Shown piece after piece: positions 38,549 to 51,478 of a DNA stretch of 64,000 bases. Every line of letters starts with the position of its first letter. Position 1 is the first letter of the stretch. The position numbers and the translations under genes were made by a program. This DNA comes from a virus (Duplodnaviria > Caudoviricetes), in the IMG/VR virus record IMGVR_UViG_3300025652_000061, positions 878-64,877 of that record; one strand, written 5' to 3'. Under the pieces are notes generated by a model. That model was given only the letters and a program-made list of their open reading frames with translations, made no database searches and was not told the DNA's origin.

Positions 38549-41500
38549 ATGACAGAAGTAAGGCTTGGACCTGACAATGCGTCGTTTACAGAGAAGGTGA
38601 ACAATGAGTACACCAAAAACATCTACCGGTACGTAACCGAAATCGACAAAAGCTTAAGTAAAGACTTAAGCGAGATAGACTTCGAGCGTGCTGTACAAGA
38701 CGAGGCGTATGCAACTGAGATGTACGGGTTCATCTCTTCACACGACAATACTTTTAAGGAAGACGTTTCGCTGGAACAGTTCCTTTCTTCAGTAAAAAAA
38801 AAAGAACTCGAGCAGCCTACGGAGTCTGTATCGGAAGATGGTTTATCGGAGTCTCAGCTCGCTACTAGGCCAATTGAAAGCGAGCGTATACTCGGCGGTC
38901 TATCAGACCGCAGGTTTGAAGTTCAGCAGGAGGCTGAGCAGCGCAAGCTATCGGGCATACCGGAAGATGAGCCTATCGACCTTCCGGAAAGCTTTGTCGT
39001 TGCTGACGAGTTCTATACTCCAGAACAGCGGGCGTTGCGCCAGCGGCGTATCGATGAGTTTGATTTACAAGGTGACGCCGAGGAGTTTCGGCGTTATCAA
39101 GAGCTTATGGACGCCCAAGGTGAGGTTGAAATTCCCGAGCTCACTACCGTATTACAGAACACTAACGTAAGCCAAGACAGTGTCGACGCCTTGAGGATGG
39201 CGTATGGTCAGTATGGATTTCGTTTTGAAGGAGACGTTGCTGATGGCAATGGAACCATAGTGGCATACAACAACTACTTCGGTGATGCTGCTGCGATAGA
39301 ACTTAAAGTACATAATGGAGAGGTTCTCGGTATCGAGCAGCTTAATGTTTTTTTAAGCAACAACAAGGCTCCTGTTAATGCCGTTACACCTCAGGAACGG
39401 TCCGAGGCGGAGCGGGCTTTACGCATACAGGAGATGCGACGAGGTAGTCGCAAGCAGCTTGACGGTCGTGTCGACACACATAACCTATCATTTGTTGAGC
39501 AGAACGGAAAATACTTGGTGTTTCCAACCCTGTTTCCAAAAGACCCCACATCAACGCTTAGTAATCCATCTGCGTGGCTTGACCTGAATGAGGAGCAAGC
39601 GTTAGATGAGGCCAAGCGTCGCGACGAGGTGTTGTTTGTGAATACTGAGGAGGAAGCAAAGGCACTTGTCGACGGTAGCTGGCAAGACTTCGACACCATG
39701 GACCTCGAGGGCGAGCGTCTATACCGCGAGTATGGTCGTGACTATTACGCCGAGCGTCAAGCGGGTCGTGACTTGCAGGATATGATGGACGAGTACAAGG
39801 CCATCGAGACCCTTGAGTATGGTACACGAGTCGAAGACAATGAGTTGGTGAGAAAGTACCCGCAGTATTTCATCGACGGAAATATGGTTCGTGATGACAT
39901 GGGTGACAAGAAGAAGGAGCTTGAGTTGAGCATCGATATTTTGTCTGAGCAGATGGACGAAGAGGAGCTGGAGAGACTCAACGAAGACTTCGATTCTATC
40001 CTCGATACGCGACTAAGTGAGCGTGCCACCCGTGCGGCTTCAATAGGTCGTGACGCAAGAATTCTGATGGACGATGCCAAGGTCCGTGCCCAAACACAGT
40101 TCGGCCTTAACATCGAGGATTTGGTGGGCTCTGAGGCCGCTGACCCAAGGGAGTTTCAAGAGAAACTTAACATCGTCGAGACCTATGCAGCAGGAGCTAA
40201 GGAGCGGTTCCAAGCCGCTCAGATGTATGAGCAGGCTGAGCTTTACTTCGACAAGAAACTCAACAAACAGATTACAGGCATCCTCGTAGATGGGGCATCC
40301 AACTCTTGGAATAATGAATGGGAACGTAGTGTAGCTCGCGGAGAAGCTGGCATATTGCTTACGTCCATGCACTTTGGCCTTGGCCCCAATGCATCTCGTG
40401 AGGATGTAGTGCGTGCTGCGGGTCAAATGCTGGACCACGAAAACAAAAACACCGGGCGCTCTAAAGCCCGTGTCAACGATGCCGCTACATGGGGACAGAC
40501 TAAGGATGCGTTCTTTGAGTCTCCTCTTGACTACACAGCGGCGGTGCTATCCGAGTCTATTGGTATGCTTATGCCTCAGGTTTTTAACTGGAGGACAGGC
40601 GGAATGATGGCCGCAGGTGCTGGAGTAGGCGCTTTAACGGCGGGGCCCGGAGGCGCACTCGCAGGTGCTATAGAGGGACTAGGCTACGCAGCTACGGGTG
40701 CATTCGCCATTGCTGAGTATGGCCTTGAGATGGGTCAAGCTTTTATCGATGTGGCCATGGAGGAGGGCTACGACCTAAAGGACCCGATACAGGCTATGCG
40801 TGCTGCTCAGGACTTAGAGATGTGGGAACGCGCTGAGAAACGAGGCCATCAACGCGGTGTTCCTATCGCAATTGCATCTGCCCTGAGTAACCTTGCGGCT
40901 GGACGGATAATCACAGCAAGTAAGTATTTACCGGGTAGGGTTCGAATTCCAGCACAAGCGGCTGGGGTGATGGCTGAGCGGGTAACTATAGACCCTTTGT
41001 TTGAGATGGCGGGCGAGTATGGTGCCCTTGTCAGTTCTGGACAGTTCACTGGAAGTACGGCGAATTGGAAAGAGATATATGCCGAAGGCTTGGGAGCTAT
41101 GGGTCAGGGGGCTCCAATGGCTGTTTTGAATACGGCCAGTAGGATGGTGCGCGAGAACAGGTTCAAGATGGCTGTGGGCCTAATGGATATCGGCAGCCTC
41201 AGTGAGGAAAGGGCCAACCTCGGAATGATACAGCGTTGGGTAAACAATATGGAGAAGCTCGAAAAAATCTCTCCGGAGATGGCAGAGTATATCCGTAGGA
41301 ACGTAGGTCTCTTACGTGAGGCCAATGTATTGTTGGGGCGTAAGCCAAACTCCAGAGGCAGGTTTGCTGACCCTGAGGTAACGGCTCGTCTTGTGCGTTT
41401 GCTTGAGGCCAAAAAAATTATTGAAGGTGACGGGCGTTCCTCACAGCAAAACCAAAGCGGTGCATTCTCTGAGCTATTGTCACGCATCAACGATGAGATA

Positions 41501-44500
41501 GCGGAGACTGTAAGGACGGGTCGCCTCTCAGAGGAGGGGGTAGAGTTAAACCCTTCGCAGCGAGAGTTTACTCCGGGCATGGAACCAGACCTTAGTCAAG
41601 AGGAGGAGCTGGAGTTGCTCGTGGCTAAAGCAAGGCCCGGCGTATATCAGATTGACGGGTCCTTTATGGACCGTGTCAAGTTCGTAAACACAATAAAAGA
41701 AGAGAAGGATATTAGAAAGCTCAAGAAAGCCGTCGTCCTTAACGACCCCCTTGTAGCCAGCCTTTTAAAAATACAGCAAAATGCCATTCAAAAGCGAAAA
41801 GCAACGCCGCTACCTGTGGGCGAACAAGCCCAGTCTAGCGAAGAAGTGGACGAAGAAGTACGGGTCGACCCCCCCACGCAAGAAGAGCTTGATGACTACA
41901 AGGAAGGCTCGTTAACGAGCGAGCGCATTAGCCTCATCGAGGGTGACATCGTAGAGATTCTGGCATCGAAAGGTGAGCTCGATGCAATACAACAGCAGTT
42001 CTATGAATTCAATGCTGAAGAGATAGACCGTCGCGTCACAGAGTTCAATGCATTTGTAGAAGACAATGTCATTACTGAAGACGGCAAGCCTGTAACAAAA
42101 GAGAACTTAGGGATTATAGCCAAGGCAAAGAATGCTGTAGCTGCCCTAGCCAAGAACTTCCCTGAGGTTAAGGTCGTGCTCCATGACACAAGAGAGTCAT
42201 ATGAGAAGGCTTCTAAGGACACGACGGGGTCCGGGACATACTTGTGGGACCAGAAAGAAATCCACATCGACCTTACCACAGCTAATGATAGGACGGTAGC
42301 TCACGAAACCTTCCACGCTGTACTGAGGAATAGCATCGACGAGTCTGATGTGAGGGCCCTGATGGACGACTTCGTAGAGACGTTGCTGAAAGTATTGCCC
42401 GAAGACTCTGACATTTTGTCTCGCCTCAACGAGTTCATGCAACGGTATGAGGAAGGTGTCCGAAGCGAGGAGTTCGTGGCTGAGTTCTTTGGTATGGTGG
42501 CTGATGCGTATCCAGAGCTCGACGTCAAAGAGAAGGGTGTCGTCGCCCGTTTCTTGGAGCGGCTGGCTTCCATGCTCAACATTGAGCTCAACCTCTCTAC
42601 CGACCTGAACAAGCGAGACAAGCAAATCCTGTCTTTGCTGGAGACGCTCTCGGGCAAGGTGGCTGAGGGTAAGACCATCACCAAACGAGAGATATCCGCC
42701 TTCAAGGGTCTTACAGAGACCAAGAAGAAGACTGACCCAGAGGTAGAGGTAGAGAGTGTATTGCCGAAGAGGAGCACTCTTGGTTTCTCTGACAAGGAGC
42801 TGGTATTGCAGTCGGAGCGTGAGTTCGGGAAGAACGGAGCTGTCGGAGTATATGTAGACCCCGACACCGGAGAGATTGCAGCCGTGGTTGCGATACCGGA
42901 TAAGACCAGCGACGCAAACTACCTTGGGTACAAGAGGCTCTACGAGAATGGTAAGGCCACGAACAAGTTCGCAATCAAGGCTGACCTTAGTACGGCGGAG
43001 AAAGGCTCTACTCGCCCTGCGTTTGAGGCTGCTGTCGAGTCGCTACCCGACGACCACGTGTTGGTGGAGGCGGACAACATTTCCTCCGATGGCATTACCC
43101 TGTGGCTCAACCAGCTCCGCAACAAGTACGCGCCAACAGGAAACGTGTTTACGGTGCCTGTCAACGTGGCCGGAACAAAGGTTGACTTGGGCGGCCAGCC
43201 CGCGCCCGGACGGGACGTGTTCAACCGGGGTTTCTTCAGCAAGGGAGAGGCCAATTCGGCAGAGGCAAAGCTCAACGACCTCATCAAGGATATTCCGGGC
43301 GCAAAGATTACACGTAAGTCTGAGGCTAACAACCTATTTAGTTTCGAAGTCACGCTACCTGAGTTGGGGCGCTCGTCAACGAGCGGCGTCTCCTCGCAGC
43401 AGTTAGCTCTGGACAACTTACGCGCATCGCAGCAGAGGTCGTCTGAATACAAAGATTCAGACATAGAGGCATTGGCGTTTGAAGGTATCCTTGCGCACTT
43501 TACTGTGGCCAACATAAGGGAGTTTGAGCCGGGCAGAGGGCGTGTGCAATACTATGGTGAGGGGATATACTTCACAGGAAGACGCTCATACGCAAGCCTA
43601 TTTTCCTTCCTAAGCACCAATGAAATGGTGTCTTTCGTGGACGTGTCCAAAATGAATCTTCTTACTATACATAATTCATACAATGTATCGGCTGAGTTAG
43701 AGAATCAGATAGTGGACATGCTCATGGAAATGGGGCCTGCATACGACTGGAGGGGGGGCTTAATGAATAGGCAAGAAGTTTTTGACATGCTTTTTGATTC
43801 AGAAAACCCGGGGCTTACACCCTTGTTTAGAGTTCACTCTCAGGTTGTTAGGATGGGTCTGAACAAGGAGGCCGCAAGAATTCCGGCACCCAAAAACGTG
43901 GATGCAAATGCCGGGCAATATGTCCGCCCCCTATTCGAGAAGTTCTTCCCAGAGTATCAAGGCATCGTCAATAGAGAAGACCGAGAAAATGGACTGCCCA
44001 TAGATGTCGTGGTATGGGACTACGATGCTATCAATAAAAATATTGTTTCCGCCCCCCTCAATCGGCTTAAGAATATTCGTAACCTCTCCGCTTCAGAAGA
44101 GAAGCTTACTAGGCCCCGTTGGGGTGGGCGCTCCTCGCAGCAGGTCAATGTCGAAAGCAATGAGGACGGTAGCTTTACGTTCCGCACTGAGGGTGGCAGG
44201 CTCGATGCGTTCCTTGATGGCAACGTAGTTACGCTGGACAACATCTTTGTTGAGCCAGACGTACAGAGACAAGGCGTGGCGACACAGTTGGTCGATGCGG
44301 CGATGGATGAGTTCCGCGACGAAGAGAGTCTAAGTGTAGTAGACGAGGACGGCAATACGATTGAAGAGCCGCAGCCTTTTATTATCGCAATTGGCACTCG
44401 AGTTACTGCCGAGGGTGACGCCTTCTATGACGCCGTCATAGATGGTATCGAAGCGTTCAATAGACGCAATGACAGTAAGCCTGAATTCAATGAGGACGGA

Positions 44501-47500
44501 TTGTCTGAGGTGCGCATGTCTCGGCAGATGGGCTTGGAGGAGGCCACGCAGGAGTGGGTTGAGGAGAACTTCAAGAACGCCGACGCGGGTCTGCGCGAGT
44601 TCCTTGTGGAGTTTGTCAAGCAGCCGGGTGTACGCCTGTTCCTAAACCCTATCGGCGGAGGCTTCTTCTACGCCAACCAAGACAAGGGGAGCACAGAGCT
44701 TGACGTTCGCACAAGCATATATATGGAGAGGGGGTTAGTTTACCTCGACCTTCTTGAGGTGGTTGCGGGAGACAAGAGTCAGGGTGCGGGCACACGGTTC
44801 ATGCAAGACTTTGTGGCTGCCCTTGATGCGTCAAATCAATCCGCAGAACTGCTTGCTTGGCCACCTAAGTGGTACCAACAGGGCATGAGCGACGAAGAGA
44901 TGGAGGCCATCTCCAAGCGTCTGCAATCGTTCTACAGCCGCTTTGGTTTTACTCCCAAGAGTAAGTTCGATGACAACAGTATGACCCGTGAGCCGGGTGC
45001 TGTTCCGAAAGAGCGCACGGCGTTGGAAGAGCGCACGGCACGGGAGCGGGCAAATGTACTCACCAGCATCGCTGACACTCGAACTAAGAAAAATGTGTTG
45101 GGTCACATCATTGCTCAGACTTACGATGTTTATTCGGAACAATATGAGGATAAAACTGAGTTCGCCCGAATCGATAGGGCAGTTGACCCATACGATGAGG
45201 GCGTTCTTGCTACCGACCTTTATAGTGGAAGGGTTACAGCAGAACAGATTGAGGAGATAAACGATGAGTACGGAGACGGCCTCATCAACGAGGACGGTTT
45301 TGCTGAGAACTTTGAAGACTTTGTAGACTCGGATATAGTAGACGACTACGTCGACCTCGTCATCGAGGAAAAAGAAATTAGTGGACGGCTTCGTAATGTT
45401 GAGCGCCGGGTAAAAGAAGAAGGTGAGGCGGCAGGCCGGCGTGAGCGTAGGCTCGGTAAGCTGGAGGACAATACGATGGCTCTTGAACACATCCTCGCTG
45501 TAAACGAAGATGTGTATGGTCGGACTGAGACGGATGTATACAATCAGTATGAGGCATACTTGGAGGGGCGTTTGGATGAGGCCGACAAGGAGTACCTGCG
45601 TTCTCTTGAACTCGGTATCGACGTCGAGACAGGCGAGGTGGACAATGCCAGCAACCTATACGATGTCTTCCAAGAGCTTCAAGATGTTCGCGAACAACGC
45701 AATGACCTTGAGCGCCGCTCCTCGCAGCAGCGCGCCATGGAGACGGACGGCACGGGTCTAGACGTACAGGGTACCGAAGAGGTAGTCACGGGGGAAGTCA
45801 GCCCAACGGTGCTTGACAAAAAGAATCAGGAGCTTACCGATGATTACCGACTTGAAGATGCGGTAGGAACCATCAAAAGCGTGGCCTCAAGAGCCGTTAG
45901 TGCCGCTAGAAAAGCTGCTGCCGGTAAGGTTTCCTACAACAAAAGGAACCCTAGGACCGGGAAGGTTAAGGTGATAACGGTAGAGTATCCGTATCAGAAC
46001 AAGAAACTTTTATCTCTCCTCAATCGCAGGACCAACGCTGCAAAAAAGGCCACCGGGAAAAAGAAAGCCGCCCTGATGGAGCGGGTGAAAGAGACTACGT
46101 CTCAGATACTGGATGAGTTCGTGGACACCATGACCGAGAACATCCTCGCGGTATATGACACGCTTACACCAGAATTTATTGAGGCATCAAAGGAGTGGTA
46201 TGTCGGAGCCAATAGGGTAGCCAATGAGTTGGCAAGGAAGTACAACATTTCTCCTGAGCAAGCCGGGGCTGTCTTGGCTGTGCTGAGCCCACAGAACGAT
46301 TGGTTTAACAACATCTCGGTGGCGGAGAGGGCGATAGAGGTGATGTCAAAGCATTCCAATACCCCGTTCAGCAGGGAGATATTCGAGAAGGCTCTAGACA
46401 AAAACAAGACTGGTGCGTGGTCTTCCTTCCTGAAGGACGCCTTCGCTCGTTATGAGGGCATGACCCTTGAGCAGATGAATGAACAGGGGGTGGCTCTGGC
46501 AACGCAAACCGTCATCTTGCGTGCTATCGACCAAGCCTTGTATCCCGGTAAGGTCTTGCTTACCGACCCCGACGGTAGGTTCCTTGGCTTTGATACCACT
46601 CCTGTGCGTTGGGGTGCTACATCAGAGATTGCCAAAGCTATTTCAGCGTTCCGCAATCCCGACATTGATAGCATCCGGATGAACCTTGGGTATGGGAACA
46701 AGGTCCGCAACTTCTACAATAATATTGTAGACCCTAACTCAAGCTACCCCTACGTAACTGCTGACACCCACGCCGTTGCTGTGGCCATGTCTACCCCCAT
46801 GTCTGCCGATGACGCGGGTGGAGTGGGTCTTTTTGATGGTGGCTTTAGCCCGATGTATATGCTTGTCAAAGAAGCTTACATCAACGCTGCTGAGATAGCT
46901 GGCATCAGGCCCAGAGAGATGCAGTCTATTACTTGGGAGGCTGTACGGGTTGGCATGAACAACGCCAACAGAACTGCTGCCGCAGTAGAAAAAAACAAAT
47001 CCAAACTCAAGAGTCTAGTTGAAAACGAAAACGTCTCTCCTTATGAAGCAGCAAGAAGAATCCTTATCAACAACCCCAGCGTCAACCCTGAGTGGGCAAC
47101 AGCAAGAGGAATCCAAGTCCAAATTCCTGACCTTCGAGAGGGAGTTAGGGAGAAAGCCGAATCGAGAGGACGCGATATACTATCTCTACGGGGACGCTCC
47201 GGAAGAGACGTGGGAGACACCGGTGCCGGAGTGGGTGTTCAGCCTACCGAAGACCGCTCCTCGCAGCAGCGATTAGCCCCTAATGGAAAGCCCAGTAACC
47301 TGACGCCTGAGCAGTACGACTTGGTTCGTACTGAGGCTTTCAAGAACTGGTTTGGAGATTGGGAGAACGACCCGAAGAATGCCTCAAAAATAGTCGACGA
47401 TAACGGGGAACCCATGGTGGTGTACCATGGAAGCGTGGACCCCGACATACAAGAGTTTAGCGAGGAGGGTGCTCGAGAGCGACGCAGGTCCGGTCTAAAC

Positions 47501-50500
47501 GAGCTTGGGGTCTTCTTCTCTTCGAACCGAGACCTAGCTCAGGATTATGCAAAGGGCAGGGCAGAGATGTCTAGGGTGGCCGATGAGCAGATGCGAGAGC
47601 GGGGGGTTGTGAGAGACGATGTTCGTCAGGGGGACTATGTGCCGTCTGTGTATGCAGCATTCTTGGACATGAAGAATCCCTACCGCTTCGACGGCAAGGG
47701 CAAGTTCTACCCTGACTACTACAACGAGGTGCCATACCTTGAAATCTGGCCTAACTATGGCAAGAGCGGTAAGCGGGCTGTCACGGCATATCTAGGAGAT
47801 AATACCGCGTACGAAACTCCGTATGATGGAGTGGTGGCAGAGAACGTAATCGACTACCACTCGTTTGCTTCTCAACCAGACTTTGACCCCCTTGGAGACA
47901 CCGTCATTGTCCCCTTCTCCTCCAAGCCCACCATCAAGCTGGCTGACGGGAGCAACACCACGTTTAGTACCGATGACTCTCGCATAAGTAGGCAGATTCC
48001 GCCTAGCCGTCAGGTGGAGAAGAACGTAGAGGAAGCCTTCCGAGAGGGCACACCGTTTGAGGCGTCGGACTTTGAGGTGAAGTCATCGCAGCAGAAGCTA
48101 GAGCGATTGGCTCAGCCCGACGACAGCATGCAGGACATCATCGACCGGGGACGGGAAAGGTATATGCCTGACTCCGTAATCGTGGCGGTGCTCATCAAGA
48201 AGTACGGACGGAAGAACATGAAGGCCATCAGTAATGCAATGGCCATCAACTACGACATTTTCCGTGCCATGCCCAAAGTCTTTGGTGATGTCAAAGGTGG
48301 TCTAAAGGCAGGCAGAGAAATCTATATCGACGTCATGAAGGCGCTCGATGAGTTTGCTTCACCGAAGAAGGAGAAGCTTAAGCCACTGAGAGGAAAGGTC
48401 CGTAATGATAGGATTGCGGAGTTGCGTAAGGAGTTCCCGAAGGAGGAAGAGAAGAGCGATAAGCAGCTCCTGAAAGACCACCCGCGCAAGGTGAAGCTAA
48501 TAGCACCAACCAAGGCAGAGGTGGTAGCCAAGGCGATGGAGCTACTGACGGAGAACCCAGAGTTTAAGAAGCAGACGCCCGACTTGCAGGATAAGATGGT
48601 CGTAGGCTTTAACAGGGCTATGAGTACCCGCGCCAACAAGGGCATACAAAACAAGTTGCGCGAGCTGCGTAACAACATCAGTATGCGTAAGCAGGGAGCC
48701 AAGGCGGCTGCCGAGGTGAAGAATCAGATGCGAGCCCTGATGGAAGAGGCTTTGCCAAAAGCTGTGTATTCTAAAGGTGAGGTCAAAAGGATGCTTGGCA
48801 TCATCGATAGGGTCAATGAGAAAAACTATCAGGTAGAGGCAGAGAAACTTATCTCGGTCATAGAATCCAAGAGGCAGGAGATGAGCAACAATGTCCTGAA
48901 GGACATACAACGCTTTGTTCGTAAGGCCGCACGCACATACAAAACCTCATCAGGTAGGGTGCGTACCCGTGGCTTAGACGCCGCCGGACAGGCTTATTTC
49001 CAAGAGGCGGAGAGGGTGATGCTCGCCATAAAGAACAACGATGTCGAGACGCTAGGGCGGATGGCAGAAGAGCACGCAAATAACGCGCTCGTCAACGAGC
49101 TGATTAACGCTCGCAACGAGGGCGCCAAGCTTACCGTAAAGGAACAGTCGCTACTCGATAGGGTCAGCGCATACGATATGTTCATCCGCCTGCTCGACAT
49201 GAACCTCGAAGAGAGGGAGGCCGTGCTCGAAGACTTGCGTATCAACGAGGGTTTCTCCCGCTTTGCTCTCAACCAGCAGCGACTCATCAATGCACGCAGG
49301 GCAGAAGCCCTACGTCAAGGTGCAGCGGAAGACGTAGCGTCAAACTACGGGTCTATTATCCTCGGTCCCGATGGGCTTCCGATGAACGACAATGAGATTG
49401 GTGCCAAGCGTAGCGTAATCCTAGCGCGGTGGAAGGACTCTACCGCACGGGAGAAATACGACATGCTCAAGGACTTGATGAAGACCATGAGTCAAGAGAG
49501 CGCGGGAAAGTTGGCCAAAGGTCTTAGGCAAGGCATCCACCTAGGTACATATTCCAGCATCCTCGGAGACTACTTCTACGAGAACATCTTCTCTTCGGTC
49601 AACAGGATGGAAGAGGAGTACAACAGGGGGGTAATCAACCTGTCTGCAAAAATAGATGAGCTGGCCAACAGCATCGACGGTATTGAAGACGGGTATGCGG
49701 AGATAGCGGAGCTGGCGATGTCCAACACAAAGATGTTTACCCTGAACATGAAGGGTAGGCAGCAGGCTTTCTTCATGGATAGCCTCATGCGGCTGTATGC
49801 TTTGTCTTTGAACCCATTACAGAGGCAGCGCCTTGTAGAGATGGGCATAGACATGTCTGAGCTCGACGCCATCATAGACCCTAGGCTCAAGGAGTTTGTA
49901 GAGAAGACGGTAGACTTCCTGTCCAACGAATACTACGAGGGCATCAACGATGTATACCGTAGCGTCAATAGCGTTAATCTCCCACACATAGAGAACTACT
50001 TCCCTACACAAACGCTGGTGCCGACAAAGGTTTCTATCAATGAGCTGAAGGAGGGGTTGTTGGGCATGCCGTCAGCACAGACGGCATCGGCTTTGAAGTT
50101 GCGTACCGCAACTACGGGTGAGATTGCCCTTGGCTCCGAAGCGGGTGGCCTCAGCTTTTTCCAAGTGCTGGAACAGCACAACAAAAGCATGGAAAGGTTC
50201 AAGGCTTTTGCGGAAGGAACGAGGGACATCAATAGCATCCTTTCCACACAAGAGTTGCGCTCGCTGCTTACGGTATTCAACGGTAACCAGATGCTGAACC
50301 TGTTGGTCAACAACAGTGTCAACCCCGAGCAATTTGTTTCGGAGATGTCGTATCCACTTGCGGATTGGATGACTAAAAAATTCACCTTTGCCGCGCTGGC
50401 CTTCAAGGTGTTTCAGGCATTCAAACAATTTGCGTCTATCCCCATGGCTTTTGAGGGGTACAAGTATCGCCCTGACTCCAACAGGTTTACTGACGCCCTG

Positions 50501-51478
50501 ATGTTTAGCTTCGATGTGGCTCGCCTTACAGTACACATGCTGGCTGAGCTCGCTACGCTAGGGAAATACAAGGGACCTGTAGCCGAGGCTATGGATATAT
50601 CGGCTACGTTCCAGCAGCGGGTAAAGCAAGGATTCAGCGGAGACATATACACCTTGGAACAAGGCAGCGTAGGCATACGAAACCCACGCGATAAGTTCAA
50701 AAAGGGACAGCGGTTTGTGAAGGGCATGGAACGGGCTGGCGGTATGACCACGGCCATCGGAGATATCGGTGGTGTGATGGGATACTTTGTCAACTACCGC
50801 CGCAACATTGAGAACGGGATGTCAAAGGAGGAAGCTCTGGAGAAGTTCAACGACTTCAATGTGACACAGCAGTCGCGCCGACCTTCGGAAAGGGTTCCGG
50901 TACAGATTTATCAGAACGGAATATTGCGGCTATTCACAGCCTTCGGAAGCACATACTTCCTCTATGCCAACAACACTATTCAGGCCGGAAACAAAATCCT
51001 GAGGGCCATAAGAAAGGGAGAGAAGCCAAGCTCGAAGGACGTGCGCCGCTTCTACCTTAACGCAATATATGGTCACGTAATATGGACGATGGCAGCCAAC
51101 GCTTCTCTGCTAATTAAAGGAGATAAAGAAGACAGAGAGAAGGCGTTGAAGAGAATGCTTGTGTCTCCCTTGGGTCCCCTTACTCTTATACCCATAGTTG
51201 GTGCTCAAGTGAAGCAAGTCATGAACGCTCTCGCCGGCGACGACTTTAAAGCGTCGGTTGGTTTGGACCCACTGGAAGGCTTAATACGTGAGGTCAAAAA
51301 ATCATTTAAAGAAGAGCGTTACGGGCGTGCCGTGTCCGAGATATTTGAGTACGGACTGGGAGTCAACTTTGATATGTTCCGTGGTCTGTATAAGATAGCG
51401 GAAGGAGAAGAGGTTACCGAGGGTACCTATGAAGCTCTGGGAATACCGAAGACAACAAGGCCGGAGTCAGACGAGTGA
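38549..51478 (+). CDS. Giant polyvalent internal virion protein (zincin peptidase, GNAT x2-3, ADP-ribosyltransferase-like x2, DUF7178-like HhH-glycosylase-type domain)
   Basis: 4309 aa; HETFH..EEFVAE; QRQGVATQL and KSQGAGTRF..FYSRFGF; YGEGIYFT and FKNWFGDWE..VVYHGS..GVFFS..YDGV; AVLSPQNDW..KVRNFYNN..VTADTHA..MQSITW. Confidence 0.85.
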   Translation: MTEVRLGPDNASFTEKVNNEYTKNIYRYVTEIDKSLSKDLSEIDFERAVQDEAYATEMYGFISSHDNTFKEDVSLEQFLSSVKKKELEQPTESVSEDGLSESQLATRPIESERILGGLSDRRFEVQQEAEQRKLSGIPEDEPIDLPESFVVADEFYTPEQRALRQRRIDEFDLQGDAEEFRRYQELMDAQGEVEIPELTTVLQNTNVSQDSVDALRMAYGQYGFRFEGDVADGNGTIVAYNNYFGDAAAIELKVHNGEVLGIEQLNVFLSNNKAPVNAVTPQERSEAERALRIQEMRRGSRKQLDGRVDTHNLSFVEQNGKYLVFPTLFPKDPTSTLSNPSAWLDLNEEQALDEAKRRDEVLFVNTEEEAKALVDGSWQDFDTMDLEGERLYREYGRDYYAERQAGRDLQDMMDEYKAIETLEYGTRVEDNELVRKYPQYFIDGNMVRDDMGDKKKELELSIDILSEQMDEEELERLNEDFDSILDTRLSERATRAASIGRDARILMDDAKVRAQTQFGLNIEDLVGSEAADPREFQEKLNIVETYAAGAKERFQAAQMYEQAELYFDKKLNKQITGILVDGASNSWNNEWERSVARGEAGILLTSMHFGLGPNASREDVVRAAGQMLDHENKNTGRSKARVNDAATWGQTKDAFFESPLDYTAAVLSESIGMLMPQVFNWRTGGMMAAGAGVGALTAGPGGALAGAIEGLGYAATGAFAIAEYGLEMGQAFIDVAMEEGYDLKDPIQAMRAAQDLEMWERAEKRGHQRGVPIAIASALSNLAAGRIITASKYLPGRVRIPAQAAGVMAERVTIDPLFEMAGEYGALVSSGQFTGSTANWKEIYAEGLGAMGQGAPMAVLNTASRMVRENRFKMAVGLMDIGSLSEERANLGMIQRWVNNMEKLEKISPEMAEYIRRNVGLLREANVLLGRKPNSRGRFADPEVTARLVRLLEAKKIIEGDGRSSQQNQSGAFSELLSRINDEIAETVRTGRLSEEGVELNPSQREFTPGMEPDLSQEEELELLVAKARPGVYQIDGSFMDRVKFVNTIKEEKDIRKLKKAVVLNDPLVASLLKIQQNAIQKRKATPLPVGEQAQSSEEVDEEVRVDPPTQEELDDYKEGSLTSERISLIEGDIVEILASKGELDAIQQQFYEFNAEEIDRRVTEFNAFVEDNVITEDGKPVTKENLGIIAKAKNAVAALAKNFPEVKVVLHDTRESYEKASKDTTGSGTYLWDQKEIHIDLTTANDRTVAHETFHAVLRNSIDESDVRALMDDFVETLLKVLPEDSDILSRLNEFMQRYEEGVRSEEFVAEFFGMVADAYPELDVKEKGVVARFLERLASMLNIELNLSTDLNKRDKQILSLLETLSGKVAEGKTITKREISAFKGLTETKKKTDPEVEVESVLPKRSTLGFSDKELVLQSEREFGKNGAVGVYVDPDTGEIAAVVAIPDKTSDANYLGYKRLYENGKATNKFAIKADLSTAEKGSTRPAFEAAVESLPDDHVLVEADNISSDGITLWLNQLRNKYAPTGNVFTVPVNVAGTKVDLGGQPAPGRDVFNRGFFSKGEANSAEAKLNDLIKDIPGAKITRKSEANNLFSFEVTLPELGRSSTSGVSSQQLALDNLRASQQRSSEYKDSDIEALAFEGILAHFTVANIREFEPGRGRVQYYGEGIYFTGRRSYASLFSFLSTNEMVSFVDVSKMNLLTIHNSYNVSAELENQIVDMLMEMGPAYDWRGGLMNRQEVFDMLFDSENPGLTPLFRVHSQVVRMGLNKEAARIPAPKNVDANAGQYVRPLFEKFFPEYQGIVNREDRENGLPIDVVVWDYDAINKNIVSAPLNRLKNIRNLSASEEKLTRPRWGGRSSQQVNVESNEDGSFTFRTEGGRLDAFLDGNVVTLDNIFVEPDVQRQGVATQLVDAAMDEFRDEESLSVVDEDGNTIEEPQPFIIAIGTRVTAEGDAFYDAVIDGIEAFNRRNDSKPEFNEDGLSEVRMSRQMGLEEATQEWVEENFKNADAGLREFLVEFVKQPGVRLFLNPIGGGFFYANQDKGSTELDVRTSIYMERGLVYLDLLEVVAGDKSQGAGTRFMQDFVAALDASNQSAELLAWPPKWYQQGMSDEEMEAISKRLQSFYSRFGFTPKSKFDDNSMTREPGAVPKERTALEERTARERANVLTSIADTRTKKNVLGHIIAQTYDVYSEQYEDKTEFARIDRAVDPYDEGVLATDLYSGRVTAEQIEEINDEYGDGLINEDGFAENFEDFVDSDIVDDYVDLVIEEKEISGRLRNVERRVKEEGEAAGRRERRLGKLEDNTMALEHILAVNEDVYGRTETDVYNQYEAYLEGRLDEADKEYLRSLELGIDVETGEVDNASNLYDVFQELQDVREQRNDLERRSSQQRAMETDGTGLDVQGTEEVVTGEVSPTVLDKKNQELTDDYRLEDAVGTIKSVASRAVSAARKAAAGKVSYNKRNPRTGKVKVITVEYPYQNKKLLSLLNRRTNAAKKATGKKKAALMERVKETTSQILDEFVDTMTENILAVYDTLTPEFIEASKEWYVGANRVANELARKYNISPEQAGAVLAVLSPQNDWFNNISVAERAIEVMSKHSNTPFSREIFEKALDKNKTGAWSSFLKDAFARYEGMTLEQMNEQGVALATQTVILRAIDQALYPGKVLLTDPDGRFLGFDTTPVRWGATSEIAKAISAFRNPDIDSIRMNLGYGNKVRNFYNNIVDPNSSYPYVTADTHAVAVAMSTPMSADDAGGVGLFDGGFSPMYMLVKEAYINAAEIAGIRPREMQSITWEAVRVGMNNANRTAAAVEKNKSKLKSLVENENVSPYEAARRILINNPSVNPEWATARGIQVQIPDLREGVREKAESRGRDILSLRGRSGRDVGDTGAGVGVQPTEDRSSQQRLAPNGKPSNLTPEQYDLVRTEAFKNWFGDWENDPKNASKIVDDNGEPMVVYHGSVDPDIQEFSEEGARERRRSGLNELGVFFSSNRDLAQDYAKGRAEMSRVADEQMRERGVVRDDVRQGDYVPSVYAAFLDMKNPYRFDGKGKFYPDYYNEVPYLEIWPNYGKSGKRAVTAYLGDNTAYETPYDGVVAENVIDYHSFASQPDFDPLGDTVIVPFSSKPTIKLADGSNTTFSTDDSRISRQIPPSRQVEKNVEEAFREGTPFEASDFEVKSSQQKLERLAQPDDSMQDIIDRGRERYMPDSVIVAVLIKKYGRKNMKAISNAMAINYDIFRAMPKVFGDVKGGLKAGREIYIDVMKALDEFASPKKEKLKPLRGKVRNDRIAELRKEFPKEEEKSDKQLLKDHPRKVKLIAPTKAEVVAKAMELLTENPEFKKQTPDLQDKMVVGFNRAMSTRANKGIQNKLRELRNNISMRKQGAKAAAEVKNQMRALMEEALPKAVYSKGEVKRMLGIIDRVNEKNYQVEAEKLISVIESKRQEMSNNVLKDIQRFVRKAARTYKTSSGRVRTRGLDAAGQAYFQEAERVMLAIKNNDVETLGRMAEEHANNALVNELINARNEGAKLTVKEQSLLDRVSAYDMFIRLLDMNLEEREAVLEDLRINEGFSRFALNQQRLINARRAEALRQGAAEDVASNYGSIILGPDGLPMNDNEIGAKRSVILARWKDSTAREKYDMLKDLMKTMSQESAGKLAKGLRQGIHLGTYSSILGDYFYENIFSSVNRMEEEYNRGVINLSAKIDELANSIDGIEDGYAEIAELAMSNTKMFTLNMKGRQQAFFMDSLMRLYALSLNPLQRQRLVEMGIDMSELDAIIDPRLKEFVEKTVDFLSNEYYEGINDVYRSVNSVNLPHIENYFPTQTLVPTKVSINELKEGLLGMPSAQTASALKLRTATTGEIALGSEAGGLSFFQVLEQHNKSMERFKAFAEGTRDINSILSTQELRSLLTVFNGNQMLNLLVNNSVNPEQFVSEMSYPLADWMTKKFTFAALAFKVFQAFKQFASIPMAFEGYKYRPDSNRFTDALMFSFDVARLTVHMLAELATLGKYKGPVAEAMDISATFQQRVKQGFSGDIYTLEQGSVGIRNPRDKFKKGQRFVKGMERAGGMTTAIGDIGGVMGYFVNYRRNIENGMSKEEALEKFNDFNVTQQSRRPSERVPVQIYQNGILRLFTAFGSTYFLYANNTIQAGNKILRAIRKGEKPSSKDVRRFYLNAIYGHVIWTMAANASLLIKGDKEDREKALKRMLVSPLGPLTLIPIVGAQVKQVMNALAGDDFKASVGLDPLEGLIREVKKSFKEERYGRAVSEIFEYGLGVNFDMFRGLYKIAEGEEVTEGTYEALGIPKTTRPESDE
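41781..41915 (+). CDS. Nested out-of-frame basic protein MPFKSEKQRRYLWANKPSLAKKWTKKYG... (44 aa)
   Basis: +1 frame of the giant gene; A-rich leader; matches from memory the MPFKSxxQRR small phage protein family. Confidence 0.75.
   Translation: MPFKSEKQRRYLWANKPSLAKKWTKKYGSTPPRKKSLMTTRKAR
41907..41920. repeat. Perfect-palindrome variant GCTCGTTAACGAGC
   Basis: One mismatch to the consensus; contains the TAA of the nested gene. Confidence 0.8.
43371..43384 (+). repeat. Dispersed palindrome, copy 6
   Basis: Exact match; at a module junction of the giant gene. Confidence 0.95.
47043..47276 (+). CDS. Candidate nested out-of-frame protein (77 aa; ...FERELGRKPNREDAIYYLYGDAPEETWETPVPEWVFSLP...)
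   Basis: +1 frame looks globular while the main frame is an R/G-rich linker. Confidence 0.5.
   Translation: MKQQEESLSTTPASTLSGQQQEESKSKFLTFERELGRKPNREDAIYYLYGDAPEETWETPVPEWVFSLPKTAPRSSD
49087..49100 (+). repeat. Dispersed palindrome, copy 7
   Basis: Exact match; encodes LVNE. Confidence 0.95.

Follow-up and report, generated by a model that had tools for sequence, protein, structure and literature searches.

Does one stretch of phage DNA encode two proteins at once? This question is raised by a locus in a 64,000-nucleotide (nt) stretch of DNA from a virus of the Caudoviricetes (IMG/VR record IMGVR_UViG_3300025652_000061, positions 878 to 64,877; hereafter, the window), which covers almost the whole of its viral record (64,877 bp; completeness rating, 100%). 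An initial annotation, made from the sequence alone, had proposed that a complete small basic gene lies hidden in the +1 frame of a gene of 4309 amino acids (aa). Our analyses indicate, with good confidence, that positions 41781-41915 hold a real, selected and separately translated gene embedded in the +1 frame of a giant gene for a polyvalent, putative virion protein. By homology, its product is a complete member of the MPFKS family, small proteins that occur widely in phages. Related phages have the nested gene at the orthologous position. As these relatives keep it under purifying selection, the same DNA stretch would encode two proteins.

The nested open reading frame (ORF) has 44 intact codons on the plus strand, from ATG 41781 to TAA 41913-41915, and its product is MPFKSEKQRRYLWANKPSLAKKWTKKYGSTPPRKKSLMTTRKAR. 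From start to stop it lies wholly within the host ORF, which runs from ATG to stop at 38549-51478 on the same strand, and it is in the +1 frame relative to this ORF; the coordinates, length and frame agree with those first proposed. The host frame over the nested ORF translates as NAIQKRKATPLPVGEQAQSSEEVDEE..., and the same DNA in this frame is an acidic linker, NAIQKRKATPLPVGEQAQSSEEVDEEVRVDPPTQEE. A +1-frame TAA at 41766-41768 closes the nested frame four codons before the ATG, giving an open frame of 48 codons. The sequence preceding ATG 41781 is ttttaaaaatacagcaaa, and an A-rich, weakly structured leader without a Shine-Dalgarno (SD) sequence occupies 41763-41780. The conserved family core (aa 1-29, two predicted helices) is encoded at 41781-41867, where frame 0 is the acidic linker, and is followed at 41868-41912 by a basic tail, TPPRKKSLMTTRKAR, with six Lys plus Arg and no Asp or Glu. 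The HETFH zincin motif of the host peptidase module lies downstream of the overlap at 42302-42316, 387 nt 3' of the nested ORF. The A-rich leader, the linker in the main frame and the position upstream of a peptidase domain had thus all been described correctly, as had a stop codon inside a perfect-palindrome variant of a repeated motif: the nested TAA lies within GCTCGTTAACGAGC (41907-41920), whose T at 41913 makes the stop.

The length of the nested ORF alone is unremarkable. The giant gene contains 13 ATG-started alternative-frame ORFs of at least 40 aa, the nested ORF included, and 16 stop-free runs of at least 48 codons in the +1 frame; homology is what exceeds chance. In a control scan of 10 of the other 12 alternative-frame ORFs, none of the 10 matched a PHROG family at E<=0.01 (best 0.088). 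The +1-frame codon usage at the nested ORF is in the top 0.23% of the +1-frame windows of the giant gene. Elsewhere, in a Lys-rich part of this gene, a 77-aa +1-frame ORF (47043-47276) has codon usage that beats frame 0; it has no PHROG match, and its codon score is probably a composition effect.

Searches with the nested 44-mer revealed a large family. A phmmer search of 1.84 billion cluster representatives yielded 955 proteins at E<=1e-3 (best 1.2e-11), with query residue 1 aligned to subject residue 1 in nearly all matches, and tblastn found 79% identity over 24 aa (E=2e-5) to small ORFs of unrelated phages. Among the free-standing members detected by tblastn, that of a marine phage is an annotated 39-aa coding sequence (CDS), that of Streptomyces phages is a 72-aa CDS, and that of phage C75C1 is a 35-aa ORF without annotation; at 44 aa, the nested protein lies within the span of lengths observed for free-standing members (35-72 aa). 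The stand-alone small phage family that the initial annotation had invoked therefore exists. A collection of 5.8 billion protein clusters contained 131 short members, none of them named, with 53-93% identity among the 120 listed. The motif M-P-F-x-S-x-x-Q...W/Y...P..A..W, counted from the initiator Met, is present in the nested protein and stands at residue 1 in 234 of the 261 family proteins on hand. At every strongly conserved family position the nested protein holds the consensus residue (M1, P2, F3, S5, E6, K7, Q8, R9, R10, Y11, L12, W13, A14, N15, P17, A20, W23, T24, Y27, G28 and S29), and the family alignment contains short basic C-terminal tails comparable to its own.

The only family-database match of the 44-mer was PHROG 1375 (E=4.3e-4), whose function is unknown in PHROG. 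Pfam contained no family for the 44-mer at E<=10 and none for 40 family members. DUF3008 (PF11450) proteins, which we take to be small proteins starting with MPxKS, resemble the nested product in being small and basic; the DUF3008 model matched neither the 44-mer (E<=10) nor any of the 40 family members (E<=1). By these searches the MPFKS family is widespread in phages, with at least 955 clusters, and unannotated. The 44-mer itself was not returned from the 5.8-billion-cluster collection at 100% or at least 90% identity, though many assemblies contain the phage, which bears out the expectation that gene callers would miss this gene. An exact 30-mer of the nested ORF gave no match in viral contigs, nor did a DNA search with 41000-43000 against cultured phages.

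The family also includes long forms, in which the motif at residue 1 is followed in frame by 141-652 aa (25 of 83 ORFs in the scan of viral contigs described below) or, among the phmmer matches, by 200-640 aa. These long members were considered as homologues of the window's downstream sequence and rejected: the match was 0 of about 150 family proteins, bar one weak 28-aa match elsewhere in the giant protein. In that match, a 68-aa member (P0120) aligned with giant-protein residues 2928-2957 (47330-47419) at 40% identity over 28 aa (E=0.002 in a one-protein search); it lies just before and at the start of ART-PolyVal and is possibly due to chance. The neighbours of one long-form and one free-standing member were mostly genes of unknown function. 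Since the family is mostly free-standing or the N-terminus of larger proteins, the nested gene did not originate by overprinting within this host gene. The family is older than the overlap, so the giant frame reads through a pre-existing gene. The proposal of a real gene inside the giant ORF is supported, as the ORF is intact in six orthologues and its frame is constrained, with the amendments that the case is not a one-off and that the family predates the overlap. Like PHROG 1375 and other MPFKS members, the window copy has the 29-residue N-terminal motif from residue 1, a basic tail and a short length; unlike the free-standing members, it has no intergenic space of its own and is read through by a 4309-codon ORF.

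The host gene encodes a protein with matches to ART-PolyVal (E=7e-17, 62.9 bits against a cut-off of 31.2) and DUF7178 (E=1.2e-31, 110.6 bits against 27). Its GNAT matches are sub-threshold to borderline (15.8-24.6 bits; Acetyltransf_1, 23.9 against a cut-off of 20.7), and HETFH is located at aa 1252. Because ART-PolyVal, DUF7178, a GNAT match and HETFH occur together, we regard the host product as a polyvalent protein in the sense of Iyer et al. (2017, PMC5512222). Homologous giant genes in Flavobacterium phages are annotated as "structural protein", a label that suggests a virion protein. The phage is a Bacteroidota-type podovirus, and the window's portal protein matched those of phages of Flavobacterium, Cellulophaga, Tenacibaculum and Maribacter. 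In the Flavobacterium phages, the module homologous to the HETFH peptidase is deep inside a continuous 3694-aa "structural protein" gene, so that an uninterrupted frame of giant size is nothing unusual in this clade.

Two further observations concern this gene. An SSQQ/ASQQ peptide recurs at 41438, 43391, 43424, 44132, 45719, 47258 and 48083 (aa 964, 1615, 1626, 1862, 2391, 2904 and 3179 of the giant protein), five times as R/K-SSQQ. These repeats, apparently between modules, may serve the built-in zincin peptidase as processing sites; Iyer et al. (2017, PMC5512222) have proposed that such peptidases process polyvalent proteins. In addition, the longest homopolymer run of the window, A10 at 38794-38803, lies inside the giant ORF, 245 nt past its start.

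Is the nested arrangement found in related phages? Searches with the giant protein returned only distant relatives, with similarity ending before the overlap. A protein-pattern scan with 41000-42700 gave two 37%-identical viral loci whose homology also ended before the overlap, and nothing in genome contigs; metagenome matches to the same segment were one 87%-identical contig ending at about 41245 and one distant locus. Because the giant-protein matches were distant and stopped short, relatives were collected by their portal proteins. Eighty loci of at least 528 were kept, and 16 longer records with portals 75-91% identical to the window's were searched with the family profile. Seven of the 16 had a family match 18-21.5 kb downstream of the portal gene, as in the window. 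In six of the seven, the match was an ATG-started ORF of 42-61 aa located wholly within an open frame spanning the locus; the portals of these six are 75-80% identical to that of the window, and two of the host open frames are full-length (2805 and 3603 aa). The window's giant protein aligned with one of these host frames (L180) in a collinear BLASTP match, with 29% identity over 535 aa extending into the overlap; the last conserved host-frame block before it (GVYQIDG...LLKIQQ, 41642-41779) anchors the position. As the giant proteins align collinearly right into the overlap, the nested position is orthologous. The orthologous nested cores match that of the window at 13-21 of 29 residues (45-72% identity), and all six ORFs have basic tails. 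Records L006 and L007, both incomplete, gave no match in the family search.

This comparison also bears on the integrity of the assembly. A C7 run at 41869-41875 is read in the nested frame as ACC CCC CCA, and because one extra C joins the small frame to the downstream frame, a homopolymer error was treated as a serious rival. With C8, the MPFKS frame would continue into the frame downstream, a stop at about 41894 would end the upstream frame, and the true layout would be two ordinary genes. Yet independent contigs cross the run without a gap: X10 covers 41400-43438 and X14 covers 41510-41988, each with one difference, and X17 covers 40500-42664 with 73 substitutions, about 40 of them beyond 41023, and represents a 3.4%-diverged strain. 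Neither X10 nor X17 comes from a run that is marked as a possible source of the viral record. The comparison was made on contigs, and X16 does not cover 41843-42610. Since contigs of three runs show no indel, the frame layout is real and not an assembly artefact; relatives without the C run share the nested layout, and in this clade a peptidase module inside one uninterrupted giant gene is the normal arrangement. We give a miscounted run next to no probability.

The phage itself occurs in many data sets. The segment 40500-43500 was present at a word share of at least 0.95 in 11 runs from 9 named studies plus one run without a named study, comprising marine, seawater, freshwater, aquatic and mollusc metagenomes from 2012-2023. 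This spread across runs is unusually wide for one phage genotype.

Conservation of the two frames was compared over the overlap in seven sequences (the window and the six relatives). The ratio of nonsynonymous to synonymous proportions (pN/pS) for codons 2-27 was 0.37 for the nested and 1.55 for the host frame, and amino-acid identity was 61% and 40%, respectively. The +1 frame, intact in all six orthologues, is therefore also the better conserved one. Diversity was highest at the third nested codon position (0.447), followed by the first (0.381) and second (0.245). In the set of ORFs nested in scaffold genes, described below, pN/pS was 0.30 for the nested frame and 1.57 for the host frame, whereas in a control block of the scaffold gene outside the overlap the host frame had 0.32 and a mock +1 frame 1.13. 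The selection signature thus switches from host to nested frame exactly across the overlap, and purifying selection in the overlap acts on the nested frame and not on the host frame. Of 48 non-nested family genes, only 4 lack stops in the host-equivalent frame over codons 1-29, so the nested copies have evolved to leave the host frame free of stops: unlike most non-nested members, the window copy avoids every host-frame stop at its third positions. Within the overlap, the host frame is only kept open, as an acidic, disordered linker at a module boundary.

The same periodicity bears on the idea that the conservation reflects a DNA or RNA signal, such as a protein-binding site or RNA structure, with no second protein. 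Pieces of 33-37 nt from unrelated contigs match 41836-41872 with 3-5 differences, and a genome-wide 14-nt motif overlaps the nested stop, both of which such a signal would explain. But variation follows the nested codon periodicity, with most changes at third positions, the same protein is made from free-standing genes in unrelated phages, and the start region is predicted to be unstructured; we consider a nucleic-acid element very improbable. The motif in question, GCTCGTCAACGAGC, was found with up to two mismatches at 16, 588, 765, 2889, 15224, 28759, 34665, 41907, 43371, 49087, 51981, 57671, 60294, 62361, 63322 and 63888, that is, in 16 copies where 0.19 are expected, and GCTCGTTAACGAGC is the sole perfect-palindrome copy in the window. 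Copies are in both orientations, in coding DNA (in varied codon phases) and non-coding DNA, with unconserved flanks. The motif looks like a sequence-specific DNA site and not like a promoter or terminator.

A second type of host gene came from a profile-guided scan of viral contigs, in which there were at least 558 family loci and the 80 most similar to the nested protein were kept; 83 family ORFs, four of them from named phages, were analyzed. Of these, 32 lie wholly inside an open frame of about 390-430 codons (shorter at contig ends) in the same frame relation as in the window, and none of the 83 has the other frame relation; 25 are the in-frame long forms and 26 are free-standing. The 32 host genes are located between the portal gene (PHROG 6547) and a capsid-like structural gene (PHROG 13704), i.e., in the scaffold position. 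PHROG and Pfam searches with four of these scaffold-type host proteins detected no credible family. Compared with the window, the portal of this clade is 48% identical and the scaffold 32% identical, and the window's own scaffold gene has no family segment. A DNA-pattern search for the window variant found eight loci, all eight nested in scaffold genes (one being the L029 contig already counted), and DNA similarity between the window and the scaffold-nested copies is limited to the 29-codon core. One locus has another layout: at L043:2850-4044, the motif shares its frame with the C-terminal domain of the scaffold (347 aa), and the ORF of the scaffold N-terminal part stops right after the overlap. 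Either a natural change of frame or an indel in the assembly accounts for this layout.

Could the small ORF instead be coupled to the giant frame by frameshifting? A -1 slip on C_CCC_CCA within the C7 run would yield an MPFKS-headed polyprotein of about 3200 aa; alternatively, if frame-0 ribosomes slipped by +1 on the C run, the giant protein would terminate early at TAA 41915. Programmed -1 frameshift pairs are known in phage structural genes (the G/GT type of tail chaperones), and the window resembles them in that a short and a possible long product share an N-terminus and a formal slippery heptamer is present, lying in the correct frame. The many in-frame long family forms (25 of 83 ORFs, with 141-652 aa after the motif) and the L043 locus, where the motif continues into the scaffold C-terminal domain as the N-terminal scaffold ORF ends, are also consistent with such coupling. 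However, unlike in G/GT pairs, the heptamer is not conserved and the host frame starts far upstream. The C run is lineage-specific, being absent in all six orthologues, and an X_XXY_YYZ heptamer occurs in none of the six orthologous nested ORFs and in only 14 of 30 scaffold-nested ORFs, at varying codons. A frameshift stimulator follows its slip site by 5-9 nt as a rule, and the sole nearby hairpin (41907-41920) starts 31 nt past the C run, too far for a standard one. All nested ORFs terminate at their own stop after a basic tail, as free-standing members do, and none of 94 tested in-frame long forms resembles the window's downstream sequence, only L043 resembling scaffold. Frameshift coupling is improbable in our view.

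Several points weigh against a separately translated, selected gene. The pN/pS values of 0.37 and 1.55 are simple Nei-Gojobori proportions over 26-28 codons, with synonymous sites near saturation and sequences that are related and not independent, and the 32 of 83 scaffold-nested ORFs come from a biased sample that is largely one phage clade. In 9 of the 16 portal relatives, mostly fragments, the family profile had no match. One complete relative (G003, rated 100% complete) has no family member, and in another (G005) the family gene is free-standing and not nested; the gene and its nesting are therefore not indispensable. Finally, no RNA run was among the runs that contain 40500-43500. In G005, which is complete with terminal repeats, the member is at L185:1417-1578 on the minus strand, and its start codon shares bases with the stop codon (TAATG) of a large ORF (at least 499 aa). 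The possibility that this free-standing copy is preceded by the window's N-terminal block was rejected, as the block showed no similarity to the ORF of at least 499 aa.

Some of these points would fit a relic, that is, a recently captured or decaying copy without function that persists only through the need of frame 0 for an open linker. One complete relative has no family member and one has it free-standing, and the giant gene has 12 other alternative-frame ORFs of similar length. The ORF is nevertheless intact in all seven giant-gene instances despite about 29% identity of the host proteins. Selection acts, by the ratios given above, on the nested frame and not on the host frame, the consensus residue is present at every strongly conserved position, and the initiation region is start-like. 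We therefore regard a relic as unlikely and favor the functional embedded gene.

How would such a gene be translated? ATG 41781 has 10 A residues at -15 to -1, an A at -3 and a predicted folding free energy (dG) of -3.3 for -25 to +24. The 28 real starts of the phage have a mean of 6.1 A and a dG of -4.8, and the 136 internal out-of-frame ATGs of the giant gene have means of 4.05 A and -10.1; only ATG 41781 reaches 10 A. Its start context thus resembles the real starts of the phage and differs from the 135 other internal out-of-frame ATGs. The six orthologous starts have 6-10 A at -15 to -1 and dG values of -0.1 to -3.8. Genes of this phage have no SD sequences and their leaders are A/T-rich. 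In Bacteroidetes, initiation without SD sequences is tuned by structure and upstream A residues (PMC6847099). We infer that ribosomes may initiate internally at ATG 41781 on the mRNA of the giant gene, independently of the host start, with the A-rich, unstructured, SD-less leader selecting the start, as is usual in Bacteroidia and their phages. Translation of the nested frame would end at TAA 41915.

The nested protein is basic, with 15 Lys plus Arg and one Asp plus Glu. AlphaFold2, run with a 40-sequence alignment, predicted helices at residues 6-15 and 17-27 and a disordered tail (mean predicted local distance difference test score 74), i.e., a putative two-helix hairpin with a disordered basic tail. 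A profile search of PDB sequences detected no solved relative (best E=0.98), and a Foldseek search of the model against the PDB detected no fold match (best E=10). A language-model search found unnamed viral clusters and, as the nearest named one, a viral cluster containing DUF3008, at a score of 0.83, which is below the reliability line. As the genes that house the family are late virion genes (scaffold and a putatively ejected polyvalent protein), we tentatively propose that its product acts in head assembly or is a small protein inside the virion that binds nucleic acid or an acidic partner.

A more specific model is doubtful. The MPFKS gene may be a portable dual-coding cassette that, read one base earlier, gives a stop-free, acidic, disordered peptide and could thus be housed in the linkers of late virion genes. 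It would have settled in two or more unrelated hosts (the scaffold gene and the polyvalent-protein gene), each time in the same frame. The charge-complementary basic protein would then bind the linker that encodes it or the packaged DNA, controlling the packaging, processing or release of the host protein.

Embedded out-of-frame genes are known in phages, e.g., Rz1 inside lambda Rz (+1 frame) and the overlapping genes of phiX174. Like these, the nested MPFKS gene is a complete small gene inside a larger gene on the same strand, in another frame, with both kept in relatives, and its translation is assumed to begin separately, at a start within the larger gene. Unlike these, the MPFKS family is mostly free-standing or the N-terminal part of larger proteins; it is nested in two unrelated hosts in the same frame relation, with a poorly constrained acidic linker as the host frame; and a functional link between its product and the host product is not known. 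Embedded genes as a kind are therefore already known, and what is unusual here is a widespread small gene in the linker of a giant polyvalent gene, with the same family in scaffold genes. Our literature searches found no description of the MPFKS family or of its nesting in polyvalent or scaffold genes. The host gene joins ART-PolyVal, GNAT, a zincin-like HExxH module and DUF7178 in one giant polypeptide, as do the polyvalent proteins of PMC5512222; the abstract of that paper, in contrast, mentions no second gene encoded inside.

Embedded genes are routinely missed by gene callers, and the exact 44-mer is absent from the 5.8-billion-cluster collection. The comparative signal at this locus is unusually clean, with a nested core that is 45-72% identical against about 29% for the one aligned host protein (L180). 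Polyvalent-protein loci gain one gene in their inventory, and an uncharacterised family of at least 955 clusters is flagged for functional work. The locus is also a natural test bed for start choice by the SD-blind ribosomes of Bacteroidia inside a translated ORF. Finally, the presence of one family in two different late virion genes of Bacteroidota podoviruses suggests that the hiding of a gene in a disordered linker is a solution that can be reused.

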